This document shows, piece after piece, positions 1 through 6,000 of a stretch of DNA of 64,000 bases. This stretch comes from a plasmid, in the NCBI RefSeq assembly GCF_054482595.1, contig NZ_JBTHVH010000001.1. The stretch is one strand, 5' to 3'. A program made the position numbers. Each line of letters opens with the position of its first letter. The stretch's first letter is position 1.

Positions 1-3000
1 AGGTTTTCATTTTTGATTACTTCGAACGCAAGCACCCTGACATCTATGAGCTGTTGCATGCAACGCCTAACGGAGGGAAGCGTTCAAAAGCAACCGCCGG
101 GAAAATGAAGGCTGAAGGGCAGAAAAAAGGTTATCCGGACATGAGTCTCGATAAAGCATGCGGTATTTATCACGGCATGCGAATTGAGCTTAAAGAACCA
201 AATGGTAAAGCCCCGACGAAAGAGCAGATCGCCTGGATGCGCAGGCTTAGAGAGGAAGGCTACTACGTTGTTCTTGCGTATGGTGCAGAACAAGCGATTA
301 CCGCCATCCTGGAATACATAAGTCTTAAAAAGGGTGAGGCTATTGAGCATGTATTGAACGGCGATAAGTGGTTGCATGCTGCTTAAAATAATAAATTAAT
401 TAGTGCATGTACGCTCTTTGTGGTAGTGCACTTTAACATCGGGAGAATAATCGTGTCATCCAAGGTTAATTATGAGTCGCTGGCATCGGTCATGCCGCGT
501 AATGAACAGGAAACAGATGCTGTAGTGGACCCTGTAATCGCTGAAATGAATGCTCGCCTGGAGGCTGAATTTGCAGCTGAGAATGAACATACCACCCAGG
601 GCGACTAGGACTGTTTTTTGTGTCGGTAGCGGTCCGTCACTCACTCGTGAGGACTGTGCTGCTATAGAAAAAACTGGCTGTTCAATCATCGCGGTTAACA
701 ATTCCTGGCAGATGTTCGATGACATTTATGCCTTATACGCCGGTGATTTGTCATGGTGGAAGCAATACGGATCCACCATACCGGGAGGGAGATTCCGCAA
801 AGTGACAGCCAACCTGGCGGCGGCGAAATCATTTTCGTTGGAGTACAGGCGATATTGTGGACCGGCGGAAGGGGTAAATAGCGGCGCGCAGGCTATCAGT
901 CTGGCTGCTGAATCAGGGGCTGAAGTAGTGGTATTAGTCGGCTATGACTGTTCTCTGCAAAACGGCCTTCATTGGCATGGCGCGCACCCTCAAGCACTAC
1001 GGAATCCAACGCAGGTGTCTATTTCAAAATGGCAACAGCAGTTCCTGGATACCCGCAAAAAACACGCAGATTTACATATTTTGAATGCAAGTAGGAGCAG
1101 TGCAATTCAATGTTTCCCAAGAATAAATTTAGAGGCAGTGATCGCGTTATTATCGTCGGCAGTGGCCCAAGCGCCGCAAACTTTGTTGCGCCGCGCGGAG
1201 TGCCGATTATAGCGGTCAATGGGGCCATCGACTGGCTTAACCGCGCTTCTTATTTTTTCACCCTTGATCCATCCCCAGACAATATGCGGCGCGTTGGTCG
1301 TGGCCGCCGTCGCCGTGGTGTTTGTTATTGCATGGCACTACCCGATGTTAAAGAACGTGAAGTCAGAGATGGCGTTCTGTGCTTCCGTCGTGTGGCTGAA
1401 CGCGGCATGGAGCCAAAAAATACGAATTCTCCCGAGTGGTGGGCGTGGCGCTGGTCCGCACATTTCGGCCTTTGCGAAGATGAGAATGAAATTGCCAGCG
1501 GCAATAGTGCATATGGTGCTCTGAACCTGGCTTTCCATATCGGATTCAAACATGTAGCTCTGGTGGGCGTTGACGCTACGCAAGAACTACGCGTTCACTC
1601 CGGCGGCACGCCAAAAAATCTAAGTCACCTGCCTTTGTTATTCCAGTCTGCGCGTGAACAGATTGACGTTGTTTCATGCGGGAAAATGGGAGGTATTCCG
1701 CAGATGACTCTTAAAGAATGGCTGAAGAATACATGATGGCACCCACAATTTATCACCGTATCGACGGTACCAAATACAGGAATGTCTGGGTTGTTGGTGA
1801 TCTGCATGGTTGCTACACCAGACTGATGTCCGAACTCCATCGTGTGGATTTTGACCCGGCGCAGGATTTACTGATATCGGTCGGCGACCTTATCGATCGC
1901 GGTACTGAAAATGTCGAATGTCTGGAACTATTGCAGATGCCCTGGTTCAGGGCAGTGATGGGGAACCATGAGCGGCTGATGATTGATGCGTTAAGTCCAG
2001 ATGGCAACGTGAATAACTGGCTAATGAATGGCGGACAATGGTTCTTCATGCTGGACACTGATCAGGAAATATTAGCCTGGGCGCTGGTGGAGCTGGTAAA
2101 GCGTCTGCCCTATATCATTGAGTTGAACACGGGGCAAGAAACTATCGTTATAGCCCATGCCGACTATCCGGATAATGAATACCAATTCGGTAAGGAGGTG
2201 CCGCTTTTCAACGTTGTCTGGGCGCGCGAGCGTATCAGTGATTCGATGGATGATATTGGTGGCGAAATTTCGGGCGCAGATCGTTTTATCTTTGGTCACA
2301 CTCCGGTGAAAAGCCCGAAGACATTCTGGAATCAGCAGTATATCGACACTGGTGCCGTATTTTGCGGAAACCTGACATTGATGAAAGTGAAAGGTGATGG
2401 TGCAGCATGAAGATTGCTTTAGTTTTTCGCTCTGGTGGTGACTATAACGCTTCCGATGTGCAGTGGCTGGTTAATCAACTGCCAAAAGACTATGAAATTA
2501 TTTGCCTGACAGACCTGAAGTGTTTACATGTACCTGGCGTCAAAGTTATCCCATTGATCAACCAGTGGCAAAAGTGCCGTGGCTGGTGGGCGAAAATCGA
2601 GTTGTTCCGACCGGATATAACCGATGATCTGTTCTATCTGGATTTGGACACGGTTATTGCCGGTGATATACGCCCAATCCTAGAGCATCCACCAACCAGC
2701 TTCACCATGCTTAGGGATTTTTACCATCCACAATATCGTGGCAGCGGTGCCCTGTGGATACCAAATAGTGTTAAAGCGCATATCTGGAGTTCATTCTGGC
2801 AAGATCCGGAAGGTTGGATTTCTCGTTGTGTCACTACTGAGTGCTGGGGTGACCAGGGGTTCTTACGAAAGGTTATGGGCGATGATACACCAGCATTTCA
2901 GGATCTGTATCCAGGATGGTTTGTAAGTTACAAGGCCGATGTTGTGGAACCTGGTTCAAAATATGCGAGCGCGCGTTACTCCAGGGGGAATGGGGCATTA

Positions 3001-6000
3001 CCAAAAGACTGCCGAATAATCTTTTTCCACGGCAAACCGCGACCTCGCGAAGTGTCAGAGGATTGGCTTCCCCTTATCAGCTCATTTTTTGAGCGAGAAT
3101 CAGAATAATATTGCTCTAATAATTCCATATTTTTAAAACGTGATGTACACTCATCACGTTTTTTATTAGAGCAATCTACAAGGTGCACTATGTGGCCATT
3201 CCGACGGAAATATCACTACTGGCTGATCGCCTTTGTTACGCCGACCGGCGGTATCAGGCATGTCATCACCAGGTATCGCAACAAGAGACTCACCTTAGCC
3301 AGAATTTTACAGGCTGCCATAGGTGAGGGACTGGATACAAATTGCGTAGTCCTTCCTCCTTCATACTTAGGAAAAATGACCGAAGCACAAGCTAATACGG
3401 AACTTTGAAATGAGCACTTCAGCACAAAACCAATCAATCGAAAATGTATGTATCCCTGATGTCCTGAATGCCGGTATCCCGGCCATTATCCAGAACATCC
3501 GGGCCGCGCAACGCCGCGTTAGTTGTGATGACCTCACAGCACGTTTTTTTGATAATGCGGTTCAGTCAGCGGAGATGCTTCACGCACAGCTTATTGATGT
3601 TTATAACGCAGAAGCTGATAGCCATAACTCCCTGGTAGATGCAGCTGAAAATATGCAGTTGGATCTCGGTCTGAAGGGTAAAGAAATTGAAGAGCTTCAG
3701 CTGCAAATTGAACATTTGAAACGCCAGCAACAGGACGCGATCGACGATGCGACGCATGACGCCAACCAGCGTGCTGATAATGCCGAACGTATAAGCATTG
3801 AGCTGGAAACAAAACTCAATGAAATGACCGCGATGGTTGAACTGCGGAACTCACAGATTTCAACGCTAAAATCTCAATATAAAGAGATCATGAAACTTGA
3901 TCCTTTTAACCTTGAGAAACGCTATAACAAAGCTAAAAGCGAGCGACAGGAACTGCGTAAGCAGGTCGCCGACCTTAACCAACAGCTCAAAAAAACTATT
4001 AAAGATGCAAGCGAAGCGCGCGTGGCATTTGCTAATAAAAAAGCAGAGGTTACCGCGCTGGTTAATGAGAATGCCAAATTTGCGACGCTCAAGAAGGAAA
4101 TGTATGGCATTACTGAGCGCCGTTTCCCTGCAAGCAAACTTCATCCGACGTTAGGGCAAATCTCCTTCTTCCCGCGCCTCCTGGCTTATGGGATCTCATC
4201 GCCTAAAGAGTTCAATAACGAGCGTCCTTATATCGTTTCTAAACTGGACTTTGCTTATCAGTTCTGCTGCGACATGGGCTATGCCATTGATATCCGAATC
4301 AACGAATGGTTGATGCCAAACTTCCAGCCGCTGGCCATTTTCCGCGAGTTCCAGCCGGAAGGTTGGGTAGAGTTCTTCCATGAATTGATCTGTAAAGAGA
4401 TGGAAAGCCGCCGCCCGGAACTGGTCCGCCGTGTCGAGTGGGCGCAAGAGGTTATGTTGGCAGATGCAGAGCTGCCGTTCGAACCGGAATTTATTGATGA
4501 TCTGGCAGCTAAAGGGCTGCATACCCTGTTTGATGTGGTTACCCGCCGTCATGAGCAGTTGGTTGTCGAATTGGGTTTAGAGGAAACAGCGGCAAGAAGA
4601 CTTCTCGATGTTTGCTATGCACGTAGCGATGCATGGGAAAAAGAGAACGGCGGCACTATTTACGTTCGCTGACAGTTACAGTGTCACTTTTAATGCTGGT
4701 GGAGTGCGCCCACCAGCATTTTTTTCGTCCAATGAGGAGGGCATTTGAGTATTTTCAATAAACACGCACACCAGGAACGTCCGTATATCGTCATAGTTGA
4801 TATTGATGGAACAATATCAGAGGCAACTGAAGACAGACTGCATTTGCTTCCGCCACCAGGTAAAGGTGCATTAACAAAGGACTGGAACGAGTTTAATCTC
4901 GCCTGTGACACCGATACTCCCATCACTCCAGTTATTGATATGGTGCGCCAGTTATTTAACGTTTACACGGTCTGGTTTGTAACCGGGCGCTGTGAGATCG
5001 CAAGGGATAAAACACGAGCCTGGCTGCGGAAGTACGTAACAAACGGGGCTGAGCCTTTGCTATCTATGCGTCCTGCCACCGATGACAGAAATGACGGCCC
5101 AGCAAAGATTGATCTCCTTAAGAAAATTGGTCTAAGTAAAATCGCGTTCGCGCTGGAAGATAAGATTGAAGTGGCGCGTGTTTTCAGGAGGCACGGCGTG
5201 CTTACGTTAATGGTCAGGGAGTATGAAAATGCGCTTCTTCATCAACAATGATTGCTCTAATAAATCTTGATTTTTAAAACGGAGAAAGTGAAAATAAAAA
5301 CATGCCGCAAGGCGCGGCATGTATCCAATCAATCACAGGAGCTGAAAATATGAACACGGCATTCAAAATCATTATGGCCGCGATCTATTTCTGGCTGTTC
5401 TCTATCACTTTTGGCGGCATCGTCGCACATGGGTAAGGGGGATGCATGAAAGGCGAAGTGAAAGAGCGCGGCATGATTTTCAACGATGAGATGGTCCGGG
5501 CCATCCTCGAAGGAAGGAAAACGCAGACGCGGCGGATAATGAAAAATCAGCCTGCGGAAGTTGGTCCAGAAGCACCAGTGATGGTTAGAAAAATTGGTGC
5601 AGGTTTTCAGTGGTACGGGGCTGATGGTGTAAGCAGTGTTTTCAATTGCCCATTTGGTATCGTCGGCGATCGAATTTGGGTTCGTGAAACATGGGCGATA
5701 TTAGGCAATGAGGATGGTTGCAGTGTGGACTGGAACGACAACCTTTGTCGTGGCGATGAGAAGAACGCAGCAAGGATTTATCGGGCCAGTTGCGAGCAAA
5801 AACCTGGTGATTACGGCTTATGGTCGATACCCGATGATGCCGACTGGAAACCTCACACTGTGAATGAAAAGTTTGATGGTGGGTGGCGTCCATCAATTCA
5901 CATGCCGCGATGGGCATCACGCATTCTGTTGGAAATTACCAACGTGCGCGTTGAACGGTTGAACGATATCAGCGAATGCGATGCAAGGGCTGAGGGCGTT

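Follow-up and report, generated by a model that had tools for sequence, protein, structure and literature searches.

What do the five overlapping genes near the start of the analysed window, a 64,000-nucleotide stretch of plasmid DNA (RefSeq assembly GCF_054482595.1, contig NZ_JBTHVH010000001.1), make together, and on which acceptor? A sequence-only reading had described them as a group-transfer pathway under prophage repressor control. The answer given here starts from the identity of the locus and proceeds, via the protein families and their distribution, to the likely acceptor.

Identity and layout of the operon

The genes belong to a P1-type phage-plasmid and make up its C1-repressed pmgN-pmgO-pmgP-ppp-pmgQ operon. 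Positions 1-3600 of the window share 99.4% DNA identity with phage P1 (GenBank AF234172 / NC_005856), and the nearest record is that of phage-plasmid JL22 (99.9%). PmgO and PmgP match their P1 counterparts at 100% identity and PmgQ at 99.1%; the locus is that of P1, with the operators Op83 and Op86a/b shared and a few substitutions as the difference. In P7 the genes are named hdmA-D plus ppp. The label in the P1 record is 'putative morphogenetic function' and in the P7 record 'head morphogenesis', neither with a biochemical role, and RefSeq and PHROGs name PmgO an 'alpha-2,3-sialyltransferase' and PmgQ a 'glycosyltransferase'. The elements of the region are the following.

354..380, + strand: predicted sigma-70 promoter PpmgN, annotated at the homologous position in the P1 record AF234172
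393..409, - strand: C1 operator Op83 (Oppp), 4 mismatches to the consensus; a monovalent C1 operator in the P1 annotation
453..608, + strand: pmgN, 51-aa acidic protein, P1 lineage only
550..1212, + strand: pmgO, Maf/MptE/Cst-fold enzyme, paralog 1
1110..1736, + strand: pmgP, Maf/MptE/Cst-fold enzyme, paralog 2
1110..1212, + strand: 103-nt overlap of pmgO and pmgP, out of frame (pmgP in the -1 frame)
1718..2410, + strand: ppp, lambda-type Ser/Thr (PPP family) metallophosphatase
2407..3108, + strand: pmgQ, GT8-type (glycogenin/Gat1-like) DxD glycosyltransferase
3110..3126, + strand: C1 operator Op86a (OpmgRa), 3 mismatches, overlapping the predicted -35 of PpmgR
3135..3162, + strand: hairpin followed by a U run, likely operon terminator (-13.4 kcal/mol, z -5.8)
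3159..3175, - strand: C1 operator Op86b (OpmgRb), 3 mismatches, from the P1 annotation

All the ORFs, motifs, operators and the terminator of the sequence-only reading were found at their coordinates, and the proposed repressor control matches the C1 operators annotated in the P1 record. None of this is newly observed: the 2004 P1 annotation already has the ORFs and operators and gives the homology of ppp. On the minus strand Op83 reads CATGCACTAATTAATTT, to be compared with the C1 consensus ATTGCTCTAATAAATTT. In the window 11 C1-type sites have no more than 3 mismatches (0.3 expected) and 17 have no more than 4 (about 2 in shuffled sequence). PpmgN was not recovered by a consensus promoter scan of the window. 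The hairpin, placed between Op86a and Op86b, was missed by a simple terminator scan, probably because its stem takes up part of the T run, as judged from the scan criteria.

The successive ORFs overlap by 59, 103, 19 and 4 nt. The GTG start of pmgN, preceded by GGGAGA, is that of the P1 record, and in a mechanical ORF list the frame begins at 420. The starts of pmgO (550 or ATG 583) and of ppp (1718 or ATG 1733, the latter in an ATGA overlap with the pmgP stop) are ambiguous. The 103-nt overlap of the two paralogs, earlier singled out as unusual, does exist, but in one lineage only: relatives have overlaps of 7-94 nt or fused genes. ATG 1110 is the sole start codon upstream of the GSGPS strand of pmgP. 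Conserved PmgO residues are encoded by just the first 46 nt or so of the overlap, and the final 18 codons of pmgO form an unconserved tail.

Two paralogous putative transferases and a GT8-type enzyme

The translations of PmgO (CVGSGPS, IIAVN, LVGYD) and PmgP (IVGSGPS, IIAVN, LVGVD) share their motifs, and their paralogy is far above chance: hhalign aligned PmgO 16-199 with PmgP 7-203 at a probability of 98% (E 1.2e-13). PmgO has an invariant Cys/His cluster (C24, C36, C134, H141, H143 and H146); PmgP is the most conserved member of the set. The best fold match of both is the glycosyltransferase Maf, of the flagellin nonulosonic-acid O-glycosyltransferases (MAF_flag10 / DUF115; PDB 5MU5), at 16% identity. 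The matched Maf chain has 632 residues, compared with catalytic cores of about 200 aa in PmgO and PmgP, and unlike Maf the two are a phage-encoded pair coupled to a GT8 enzyme, with no flagellin or nonulosonic-acid biosynthesis genes nearby. They are paralogs of the Maf/MptE/Cst fold, presumably minimal transferases with glycosyltransferase activity.

As to the donor, Maf enzymes expressed in E. coli were found to take Kdo from host CMP-Kdo and attach it to Ser/Thr by O-glycosylation (PMC11339370). The sequence similarity of PmgO and PmgP to the Campylobacter sialyltransferases Cst-I/Cst-II (GT42) is not significant (E ~0.3). E. coli K-12 is not known to make CMP-Neu5Ac, so the database name 'sialyltransferase' is probably wrong on the sugar. 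CMP-Kdo would be the most plausible donor, since it is the sole CMP-activated ulosonic acid of the K-12 host.

PmgQ, with the motif GWWAKIELF...FYLDLDTV, had been guessed to be a DxD glycosyltransferase and is indeed a GT-A enzyme of the GT8 type. Its family profile matched Gat1 (6mw5; E 5.4e-7, about 160 residues aligned), GlyE (0.0067) and glycogenin (~0.03) in the PDB, whereas in the Pfam scan PmgQ itself stayed below every GT8 threshold. These relatives are protein-directed (Gat1 in the Skp1 pathway, GlyE in PsrP glycosylation, and glycogenin), and share with PmgQ the DxD, GDQG(F/L)(L/I) and (F)HG.(K/P)(R/K)P motifs, although PmgQ is shorter (233 aa). Invariant in the family are D79-L-D81, G148-D149, S174, K176 and H208-G209; Q150 is present in at least 90% of the sequences and Y175 is nearly invariant.

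A mobile trio with variable partners

In the genomic neighbourhoods PmgO, PmgP and PmgQ do occur as a set, at about 30 loci of several bacterial phyla (hosts among the Gamma-, Alpha- and Betaproteobacteria, the Bacteroidota and the Gemmatimonadota). Wherever the flanks suffice, PmgP and PmgQ are practically always neighbours, and PmgO is present in most loci. Moreover, the genes occur as fusions of the types O-P (P0051), P-Q (P0219, P0285) and Q-P (P0305); in P0269 a Q-P fusion is followed by a C-terminal stretch in which a SAM-methyltransferase motif was recognized by eye. Phages infecting Gram-negative bacteria share the trio as one mobile unit. The conserved synteny and the fusions strengthen the idea of a group-transfer pathway, and the three proteins probably form one co-functional glycosylation cassette.

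A pathway of four enzymes, as first proposed, is supported for this conserved set but does not extend to Ppp and PmgN. Outside the P1-like loci the trio always stands without them, and L121, one of the P1-like relatives, lacks them too. PmgN (phrog_2350, E 1e-37) was found in P1-like loci only and is a P1-lineage addition. Ppp is homologous to the lambda phosphatase, as had been suspected (1G5B, E 1.5e-94 over the whole length; Metallophos match of 59.3 bits). It is 64% identical to lambda NinI according to the P1 record and has the metal motifs GDLHG, GDLxDRG and GNHE of lambda-PP, but lies in a glycosyltransferase operon whereas NinI lies in the nin region. Phage D6 carries ppp among nin-like genes without the trio, and within the cassette ppp is confined to P1-like phages, nearly all cassettes lacking it. 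Elsewhere its slot is taken by methyltransferases, further glycosyltransferases or a sulfotransferase. Ppp is a separately mobile lambda-type phosphatase in the variable 'tailoring' slot of the cassette.

The neighbouring genes encode SAM methyltransferases (L096, L101, L106, L114, L126, L127), an FkbM methyltransferase (L102), extra GT-A and GT2-like enzymes (L003, L123, L125, L128), a sulfotransferase (L108), a pyruvyl-transferase-like protein (L112) and a cupin (L114). The virion glycosylation operons of mycobacteriophages reportedly include a methyltransferase as well.

Candidate acceptors of the cassette

In at least seven siphophage-type genomes (L105, L108, L112, L114, L101, the P0080-bearing contig and D3-like Pseudomonas phages) the cassette, or a lone PmgO, is a close neighbour of the genes for the major capsid protein and head completion, lying between or close to capsid or decoration genes and head-completion or connector genes. 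This frequent location in head-gene clusters, in line with the P7 label 'head morphogenesis', suggests that virion proteins may receive a small glycan from the cassette. Some cassettes instead lie outside head modules, after lysis genes (L003, L004, L106) or beside ribonucleotide reductase genes (L102, L111), which counts against a virion target. A chromosomal version, in Pseudescherichia and a related MAG (L090-L094, L104), is interleaved with intimin/invasin-type Big_1 adhesin genes.

The main rival to protein glycosylation is the modification of LPS or an envelope glycolipid, in which WaaZ-like PmgO and PmgP and a PmgQ resembling WaaO/WaaJ would act on nascent core at the inner membrane. 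The outer core, the P1 receptor, would then be altered or truncated in induced cells, and progeny would be spared loss on debris or superinfection would be reduced. WaaZ, a 283-aa product of the waa cluster, is the KdoIII transferase of the LPS inner core in E. coli K-12. It falls in the Pfam superfamily of the two paralogs (PF01973, E 7e-7) and has a similar N-terminal loop, (V/I)I..SGP(S/T)...IIAVNG, which PmgP matches with 44% identity over 36 aa (blastp E 5.5e-4, in an eight-sequence database). The O-P fusion homolog also has a faint precomputed match to PF27901 (WaaZ_KDO_III). WaaZ is listed under CAZy family GT73, and the GT8 family includes LPS core enzymes. All the named hosts are diderms making CMP-Kdo, the donor of WaaZ, and the position after lysis genes in three phages is a common site for accessory genes. 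WaaZ adds a third Kdo, and the resulting glycoforms have a truncated outer core (PMC6358824). However, the profiles resemble WaaZ weakly (hhalign probability 23% with PmgP, 5% with PmgO), and the PDB relatives of PmgQ are protein-directed GT8 enzymes, no LPS-directed GT8 being listed among its profile matches up to E = 10. An LPS enzyme would not readily be expected within head modules and among adhesin genes, and the LPS made in one latent period would presumably merely dilute that already present. We consider LPS modification unlikely.

Less likely still is the glycosylation of a non-virion protein of host or phage (an adhesin, a flagellin, a defence or regulatory protein) in takeover or anti-defence. 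Such a target would fit the chromosomal cassette among the Big_1 genes, the co-transcription of a protein phosphatase in P1 and the promoter of the P1 operon, which according to the P1 annotation is early and C1-controlled, not a late promoter of its own, and counts against a virion target. The normal virions and plaques of P1 knockouts of the non-essential pmg genes fit it too. These knockouts show no plating or antirestriction defect, and CRISPRi on pmgO, pmgP, ppp and pmgQ was neutral, which also counts against the virion reading. Against a non-virion target speak the lack of an antirestriction phenotype, the absence of matches in a PADLOC search and the repeated placement within head-gene blocks of unrelated phages.

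It is improbable that PmgO and PmgP are MptE-/TPK-like pyrophosphokinases, or other nucleotide-dependent small-molecule enzymes, that remodel a phosphorylated metabolite or signal together with Ppp. The Pfam family name does come from a kinase and the P1 operon does hold a phosphatase gene, but nearly all cassettes lack Ppp, Maf is the top fold match of both paralogs, their obligate partner, which several fusion proteins join to PmgP, is a GT8 glycosyltransferase, and the accessory genes are of the sugar-tailoring kind (methyltransferases, glycosyltransferases, sulfotransferase). Glycosylation of phage DNA bases in restriction evasion, DNA having been named earlier as a possible target, is very improbable: ribonucleotide reductase, ThyX and dNMP-kinase-like genes lie near the cassette in two large phages (L111, L102), but the cassette mostly lies in head or late modules, the loci examined have no base-hydroxymethylase or similar precursor enzyme beside it, antirestriction was unchanged in the knockouts, P1 DNA is not known to contain a hypermodified base, and the known DNA glucosyltransferases have other folds.

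Glycosylation of a protein is thus the reading that we prefer. The acceptor is, with slightly better than even chances, a protein; that it is a virion protein we put forward with more reserve. Two recent papers on the P1 structure make no mention of glycans, which speaks against this, although flexible O-glycans often go unseen in cryo-EM maps. Phage-encoded glycosyltransferases are also found in the glycosylation operons of the mycobacteriophages Che8, Corndog and Myrna, where, according to the summary of Freeman et al. 2023 in PMC12363180, they are dispensable for growth and decorate capsid and tail tube; those phages face a different host envelope, and virion glycosylation in P1 is deduced from gene position rather than observed. 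Since the knockouts still give plaques, the function would be an accessory one. Once C1 repression is lifted, PmgO, PmgP and PmgQ would draw on nucleotide sugars of the host cytoplasm, PmgQ as a GT8 retaining hexosyltransferase with a UDP-hexose donor and the two paralogs most plausibly with CMP-Kdo. Their joint product would be a short glycan attached to Ser/Thr of a protein acceptor. Taken as a whole, and at somewhat less than even chances, the operon may encode a glycan-building trio for the cytoplasmic glycosylation of a protein, likeliest of the virion head, with CMP-Kdo as a plausible donor and Ppp and PmgN as extras.

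The pmgN-pmgQ operon and its C1 operators

Positions 1-3600 of the window share 99.4% identity with phage P1 (AF234172 / NC_005856) and 99.9% with the P1-like phage-plasmid JL22, while for PmgO and PmgP the identity to the P1 proteins is 100%, and for PmgQ 99.1%. The five operator-bounded ORFs that had been described from the sequence alone map exactly onto the P1 operon pmgN-pmgO-pmgP-ppp-pmgQ, so that the description is right in all its details and restates the published P1 annotation. The locus, its operators and the homology of Ppp were already known, and glycosyltransferases are hinted at in public annotation. 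For two decades the P1 operon has been labelled with a "putative morphogenetic function" only; in the P7 record these genes are named hdmA-D ("head morphogenesis").

Features of the operon (coordinates in the window, strand, description)
354-380, + strand, predicted promoter PpmgN
393-409, - strand, C1 operator Op83/Oppp, 4 mismatches to the consensus
453-608, + strand, pmgN, GTG start
550-1212, + strand, pmgO
1110-1736, + strand, pmgP
1718-2410, + strand, ppp
2407-3108, + strand, pmgQ
3110-3126, + strand, C1 operator Op86a, 3 mismatches
3159-3175, - strand, C1 operator Op86b, 3 mismatches

Two of the starts may lie further downstream: pmgO possibly begins at ATG 583 and not at 550, since its relatives start 6-20 residues before the GSGPS strand, and ppp possibly at ATG 1733 (an ATGA overlap with the pmgP stop) and not at 1718.

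The operon is flanked by three sites with 3-4 mismatches to the 17-bp asymmetric operator of the P1 repressor C1, ATTGCTCTAATAAATTT, which are annotated in P1 as Op83 and Op86a/b. In the window 11 sites with at most 3 mismatches were observed against 0.3 expected; with up to 4 mismatches allowed there were 17, compared with about 2 in shuffles. Judged by these predicted operators, the locus fits a C1-controlled operon of P1. The operator/terminator/operator block proposed at its downstream end is borne out by a hairpin at 3135-3162 (-13.4 kcal/mol, z -5.8), which lies between Op86a and Op86b and leads into a U tract; a generic terminator scan did not pick it up, probably because the T run is partly absorbed in the stem. 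A foreign island could be ruled out by composition, as the GC content (0.46-0.52) reveals no break or island boundary.

In the surrounding genes, the 3' part of pmgM (54-386, cut by the window start) encodes a nuclease domain of the VRR-NUC type, with a Pfam E of 1.4e-4 that falls slightly short of the threshold; the protein is named VRR-NUC domain-containing protein in RefSeq and only "putative morphogenetic" in the P1 annotation. The HAD phosphatase domain of Pap (4745-5251) is of PNKP type (PF25109, E 5e-12), and the protein is not a class B acid phosphatase. This assignment also rules it out as a KdsC-like Kdo-8-P phosphatase that would tie the region to Kdo. Directly after pap lies a near-consensus C1 operator, Op88/OpmgT (5251-5267, 1 mismatch).

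Conservation of the PmgO-PmgP-PmgQ cassette

Species-representative genomes, IMG/VR contigs and assembly contigs were searched for homologous loci, which were then scanned with HMMs of the three families. A first scan of viral contigs returned P1 clones only; a second, with a divergent query, yielded nine useful non-P1 loci. PmgP is found next to PmgQ in essentially every locus with enough flanking sequence, and most loci also have PmgO. Among the hosts of the cassette formed by the three genes are enterobacteria, Pseudomonas, Alloalcanivorax, Gilvimarinus, Zhongshania, Methylophilaceae, Brevundimonas, Sinomicrobium (Bacteroidota) and a member of the Gemmatimonadota, and the named hosts, in the loci as well as among cultured phages, are all Gram-negative. 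The family has few members, with 549 clusters at 50% identity in a set of 1.84 billion proteins; of 50,697 cultured-phage records, 27 have PmgP, 73 PmgO and 32 PmgQ.

All three enzymes are tied to one another by natural fusions: PmgO to PmgP in the homolog P0051, PmgP to PmgQ in P0219 and P0285, and, in the reverse order, PmgQ to PmgP in P0305. In P0269 a PmgQ-PmgP fusion is followed by a C-terminal stretch in which a SAM-methyltransferase motif was spotted by eye. Ppp and PmgN were encountered in P1-like loci only, among the loci scanned. Both are missing from a divergent P1-like contig (L121) with the order pmgM-pmgO-pmgP-pmgQ-pmgR-pmgS, and phage D6 carries ppp (89.6% DNA identity) among nin-type genes, without the trio. 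Across loci, the slot between PmgP and PmgQ that Ppp occupies in P1 is variable in content. Elsewhere it holds a SAM methyltransferase (L096, L101, L106, L126, L127), a Nucleotid_trans-like GT-A enzyme (L123, L125, L128), a GT2-like enzyme (L128) or a sulfotransferase (L108). Further accessory genes near the cassette encode an FkbM methyltransferase (L102), a pyruvyl-transferase-like protein (L112) and a cupin together with a methyltransferase (L114).

At the level of gene content, co-occurrence, fusions and variable slot are the signature of a putative modular glycan-assembly cassette. The sequence-only reading had assigned the cluster as a whole to one glycan or other group-transfer pathway; this is supported for the conserved and fusion-linked PmgO-PmgP-PmgQ set, whereas the lineage-specific Ppp and PmgN fall outside it. 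New in this analysis are the separation of the cassette from Ppp and PmgN, the variable tailoring slot, the repeated placement in head modules and an adhesin-linked chromosomal copy, on none of which a publication was found; neither did the literature search return a paper on the function of pmgO, pmgP or pmgQ. A PADLOC search for defence systems gave no match.

PmgO and PmgP are minimal members of the Maf/MptE/Cst fold

PmgO and PmgP both match the MptE-like family PF01973 (formerly DUF115), with 23.4 and 20.9 bits respectively, below the gathering score of 34.6 bits. The O-P fusion homolog P0051 passes this threshold (44.6 bits), and a precomputed PF01973 match is present on several relatives of both proteins. 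Searches of the PDB sequences with PmgO and PmgP, both as single sequences and as profiles, gave nothing significant, so that their family could be resolved by fold comparison only. The two P1 proteins were modelled one by one; in the MAFFT alignment of the natural O-P fusion all PmgO homologs had been placed on the PmgP half. The AlphaFold2 models are confident (pLDDT 91.9 for PmgP and 86.7 for PmgO), and their comparison indicates a Rossmann-like fold in common with Maf, MptE and Cst-I. Lower in the ranking come mammalian sialyltransferases and thiamine pyrophosphokinases, and a BFVD fold search matched unnamed MptE-like phage proteins only. A kinase-type chemistry, with the fold read as that of a pyrophosphokinase, is a lesser alternative, which is disfavoured because the gene set looks like a modular glycan-assembly cassette.

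The two proteins are full-length paralogs (hhalign probability 98%, E 1.2e-13, with family alignments from homolog searches), and both contain the superfamily motifs: a G-x-G-P-S nucleotide loop, an Asn after strand 2, an (N/T)SG helix cap and a G-x-D strand. Invariant in the PmgO family are G28-P29-S30, N50, S111-G112 and G131-Y-D133; the PmgP family alignment has an invariant P20 (S18, G19 and S21 in at least 90% of the sequences), N37, N132-S133 and G153-x-D155. Since the GSGPS loop, the Asn, the NSG/NSA cap and the G-x-D strand all line up with the motifs of Cst-II, and the fold matches agree, the earlier comparison of the GSGPS proteins with DUF115/Maf-type transferases is right at the fold level. 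The database name "alpha-2,3-sialyltransferase" should be taken as a label for the family; it does not assign a substrate.

The likeness to Maf flagellin glycosyltransferases does not extend to architecture or gene context. Maf proteins are multi-domain enzymes in which acceptor-binding regions flank the MAF_flag10 core, and about 160 residues of PmgO (220 aa) and PmgP (208 aa) align with a Maf chain of 632 residues. Maf genes sit with genes for flagellin and nonulosonic acids; neither flagellar nor nonulosonic-acid genes occur in the approximately 30 cassette loci examined.

Members of the PmgO family carry a Cys/His cluster, made up of DCS...HWHGxH and two N-terminal Cys, which is absent from the PmgP paralogs. 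C134, H141, H143 and H146 are invariant, C24 and C36 are present in at least 90% of the sequences, and model confidence is lower in this segment. The cluster could be a metal site or the holder of the catalytic His.

The overlap of pmgO and pmgP

The 103-nt overlap between the paralogs is real, because ATG 1110 is the sole start codon upstream of the first strand of PmgP. Only about the first 46 nt of it encode conserved PmgO residues; the last 18 pmgO codons form a variable tail, which is shorter in close relatives. The overlap had been called unusual, and among the relatives it proves to be one state of several: 94 nt in a Citrobacter rodentium prophage, 49 nt in a Pantoea P1-like element and 7-13 nt in prophages of Brevundimonas, Pseudomonas and Gilvimarinus, with the genes fused in L003. 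The best interpretation is that of a tightly coupled gene pair in one of its states, in keeping with translational coupling or a two-subunit enzyme. At 1125-1131 the pmgO frame contains a formal -1 slippery heptamer, A_AAT_TTA, at which a shift would lead into the pmgP frame. A programmed frameshift that joins PmgO to PmgP nevertheless seems unlikely, since the heptamer is not kept in the Pantoea P1-like locus (L088) and the shift would lose the conserved C-terminal LE..(I/L) helix, which is retained in the natural fusion P0051.

PmgQ, Ppp and PmgN

PmgQ has no Pfam match at the gathering score, Glyco_transf_8 (PF01501) included, for which the L004 ortholog reaches E 0.31. With the family profile, PDB relatives were found in Gat1 (6mw5, E 5.4e-7), GlyE (5gvv, 0.0067) and glycogenin (about 0.03). 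Invariant in 27 PmgQ sequences are D79, L80, D81, G148, D149, S174, K176, H208, G209, P211 and P213, with Q150 and Y175 in at least 90%. PmgQ thus shares the DxD and the downstream motifs of these GT8 enzymes, and its DxD, GDQ and H-G...K/P motifs, together with the significant similarity to solved structures, predict a GT8-type enzyme. All significant PDB relatives work on proteins or protein-linked glycans.

The assignment of Ppp as a lambda-PP-like phosphatase is confirmed: it is a close homolog of lambda-PP/NinI (1G5B, E 1.5e-94 over residues 11-229), scores 59.3 bits against PF00149 Metallophos (cut-off 21.5) and carries the same metal motifs, GDxHG, GDxxDRG and GNHE. In a CRISPRi screen pmgN scored as essential (EOP 1.4e-2), although its knockout is listed as non-essential (PMC10695390). 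CRISPRi on pmgO, pmgP, ppp and pmgQ was neutral (PMC10695390), and since these downstream genes could be targeted without effect, simple polarity does not explain the pmgN score. Knockouts of the non-essential P1 pmg genes plate normally and keep antirestriction.

Genomic context, and possible donor and acceptor

In five unrelated genomes of siphophage type, the cassette lies between or near the genes for capsid or decoration proteins and those for head completion or the connector (L105 of Pseudomonas, L108 of Gilvimarinus, L112, the contig carrying P0080, and L114, in which it is directly 3' of the capsid and cement genes). In Brevundimonas (L101) it is found a few kb downstream of capsid and Mu-F-like genes, and in D3-like Pseudomonas phages a PmgO homolog has the major capsid gene, orf6, on one side and the connector gene, orf9, on the other. 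Three cassettes follow lysis genes (L003, L004, L106) and two are near ribonucleotide reductase genes (L102, L111). Judged by gene order, the position near head genes may be the strongest clue to the acceptor. A protein acceptor is also indicated by a non-phage trio on the Pseudescherichia chromosome (L104; L090-L094, including a related MAG), because it is interleaved with four intimin/invasin-like Big_1 genes, an arrangement seen in five genomes.

Some neighbours and annotations deserve mention on their own. In D3 (L118, AF165214, record 5691-6409) orf6.5 and orf7 jointly align, as one tblastn piece, with residues 20-198 of PmgO and are probably one PmgO-like gene split by annotation. Upstream of the L112 cassette, positions 1-549 encode a protein with collagen-like repeats and a CBM_5_12 module, a candidate head fibre or decoration protein that could be an acceptor or a glycan-binding partner. 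The PmgO homolog of the Klebsiella jumbo phage vB_KvM-Eowyn (L119, record 2303-2875) is annotated "structural protein"; if this label stems from virion proteomics, a PmgO-like enzyme may be packaged.

Genes for the synthesis of CMP-ulosonic acids were found in none of the loci, and the hosts are all diderms. We infer from this that CMP-Kdo is the most economical donor for PmgO and PmgP. There is precedent for such a reaction, in that Maf enzymes expressed in E. coli transfer Kdo from the CMP-Kdo of the host to Ser/Thr (PMC11339370). Glycans go unmentioned in recent structure papers on P1.

Alternative targets and proposed function

The main rival explanation has the cassette modify the LPS core, which is the adsorption site of P1. 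The KdoIII transferase WaaZ (CAZy GT73) is in the same Pfam superfamily as PmgO and PmgP, its family PF27901 faintly matches P0051, and its N-terminal loop is common to PmgP (local blastp E 5.5e-4 in a database of eight sequences). WaaZ glycoforms have a truncated outer core (PMC6358824). Against E. coli WaaZ, however, hhalign gave weak probabilities of 23% for the PmgP and 5% for the PmgO family. Moreover, WaaZ is encoded in the waa cluster, whereas the cassette occurs in phage head, lysis or early modules or in adhesin loci and never with waa genes, and core modification is at odds with the head-module and adhesin contexts. Should the LPS be the target after all, the cassette would represent phage-encoded core remodelling acting on P1's own receptor. 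Glycosylation of a non-virion protein and, finally, of DNA are lesser alternatives.

Virion glycosylation is the reading that we put forward, tentatively and at a low probability for the scheme as a whole. Against it count the normal plating of the knockouts, the neutral CRISPRi results, the silence of the P1 structure papers on glycans, and the cassettes that lie near lysis or ribonucleotide reductase genes. In P1 and many phages of Gram-negative bacteria two minimal Maf-like transferases and a GT8 enzyme, encoded by a portable cassette, would draw on the CMP-Kdo and UDP-hexose pools of the host and build a short, Kdo-containing and often methylated O-glycan on head or other virion proteins; in some enterobacteria the same cassette would have been domesticated for the glycosylation of invasin-type adhesins. 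With the acceptor read from context, the system would be a variant of Maf-type plus GT8 glycosylation and of phage self-glycosylation. No paper turned up in the literature search that treats DUF115 proteins in a phage capsid setting, or glycosylation of the virion among phages with Gram-negative hosts. If true, this would to our knowledge be the first virion glycosylation system in such phages, and also the first O-Kdo modification of a protein to be found in nature.

In P1, a model phage that is also a widespread phage-plasmid, the cassette hypothesis is concrete and cheap to test. If virion glycosylation is true, the very small transferases (about 200 aa) would be of use for glyco-engineering in E. 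coli, and the modification would bear on how immunogenic and how stable therapeutic and transducing phages are, and on their interactions with receptor or debris. Phage self-glycosylation would then reach from the mycobacteriophages to the phages of Gram-negative hosts.
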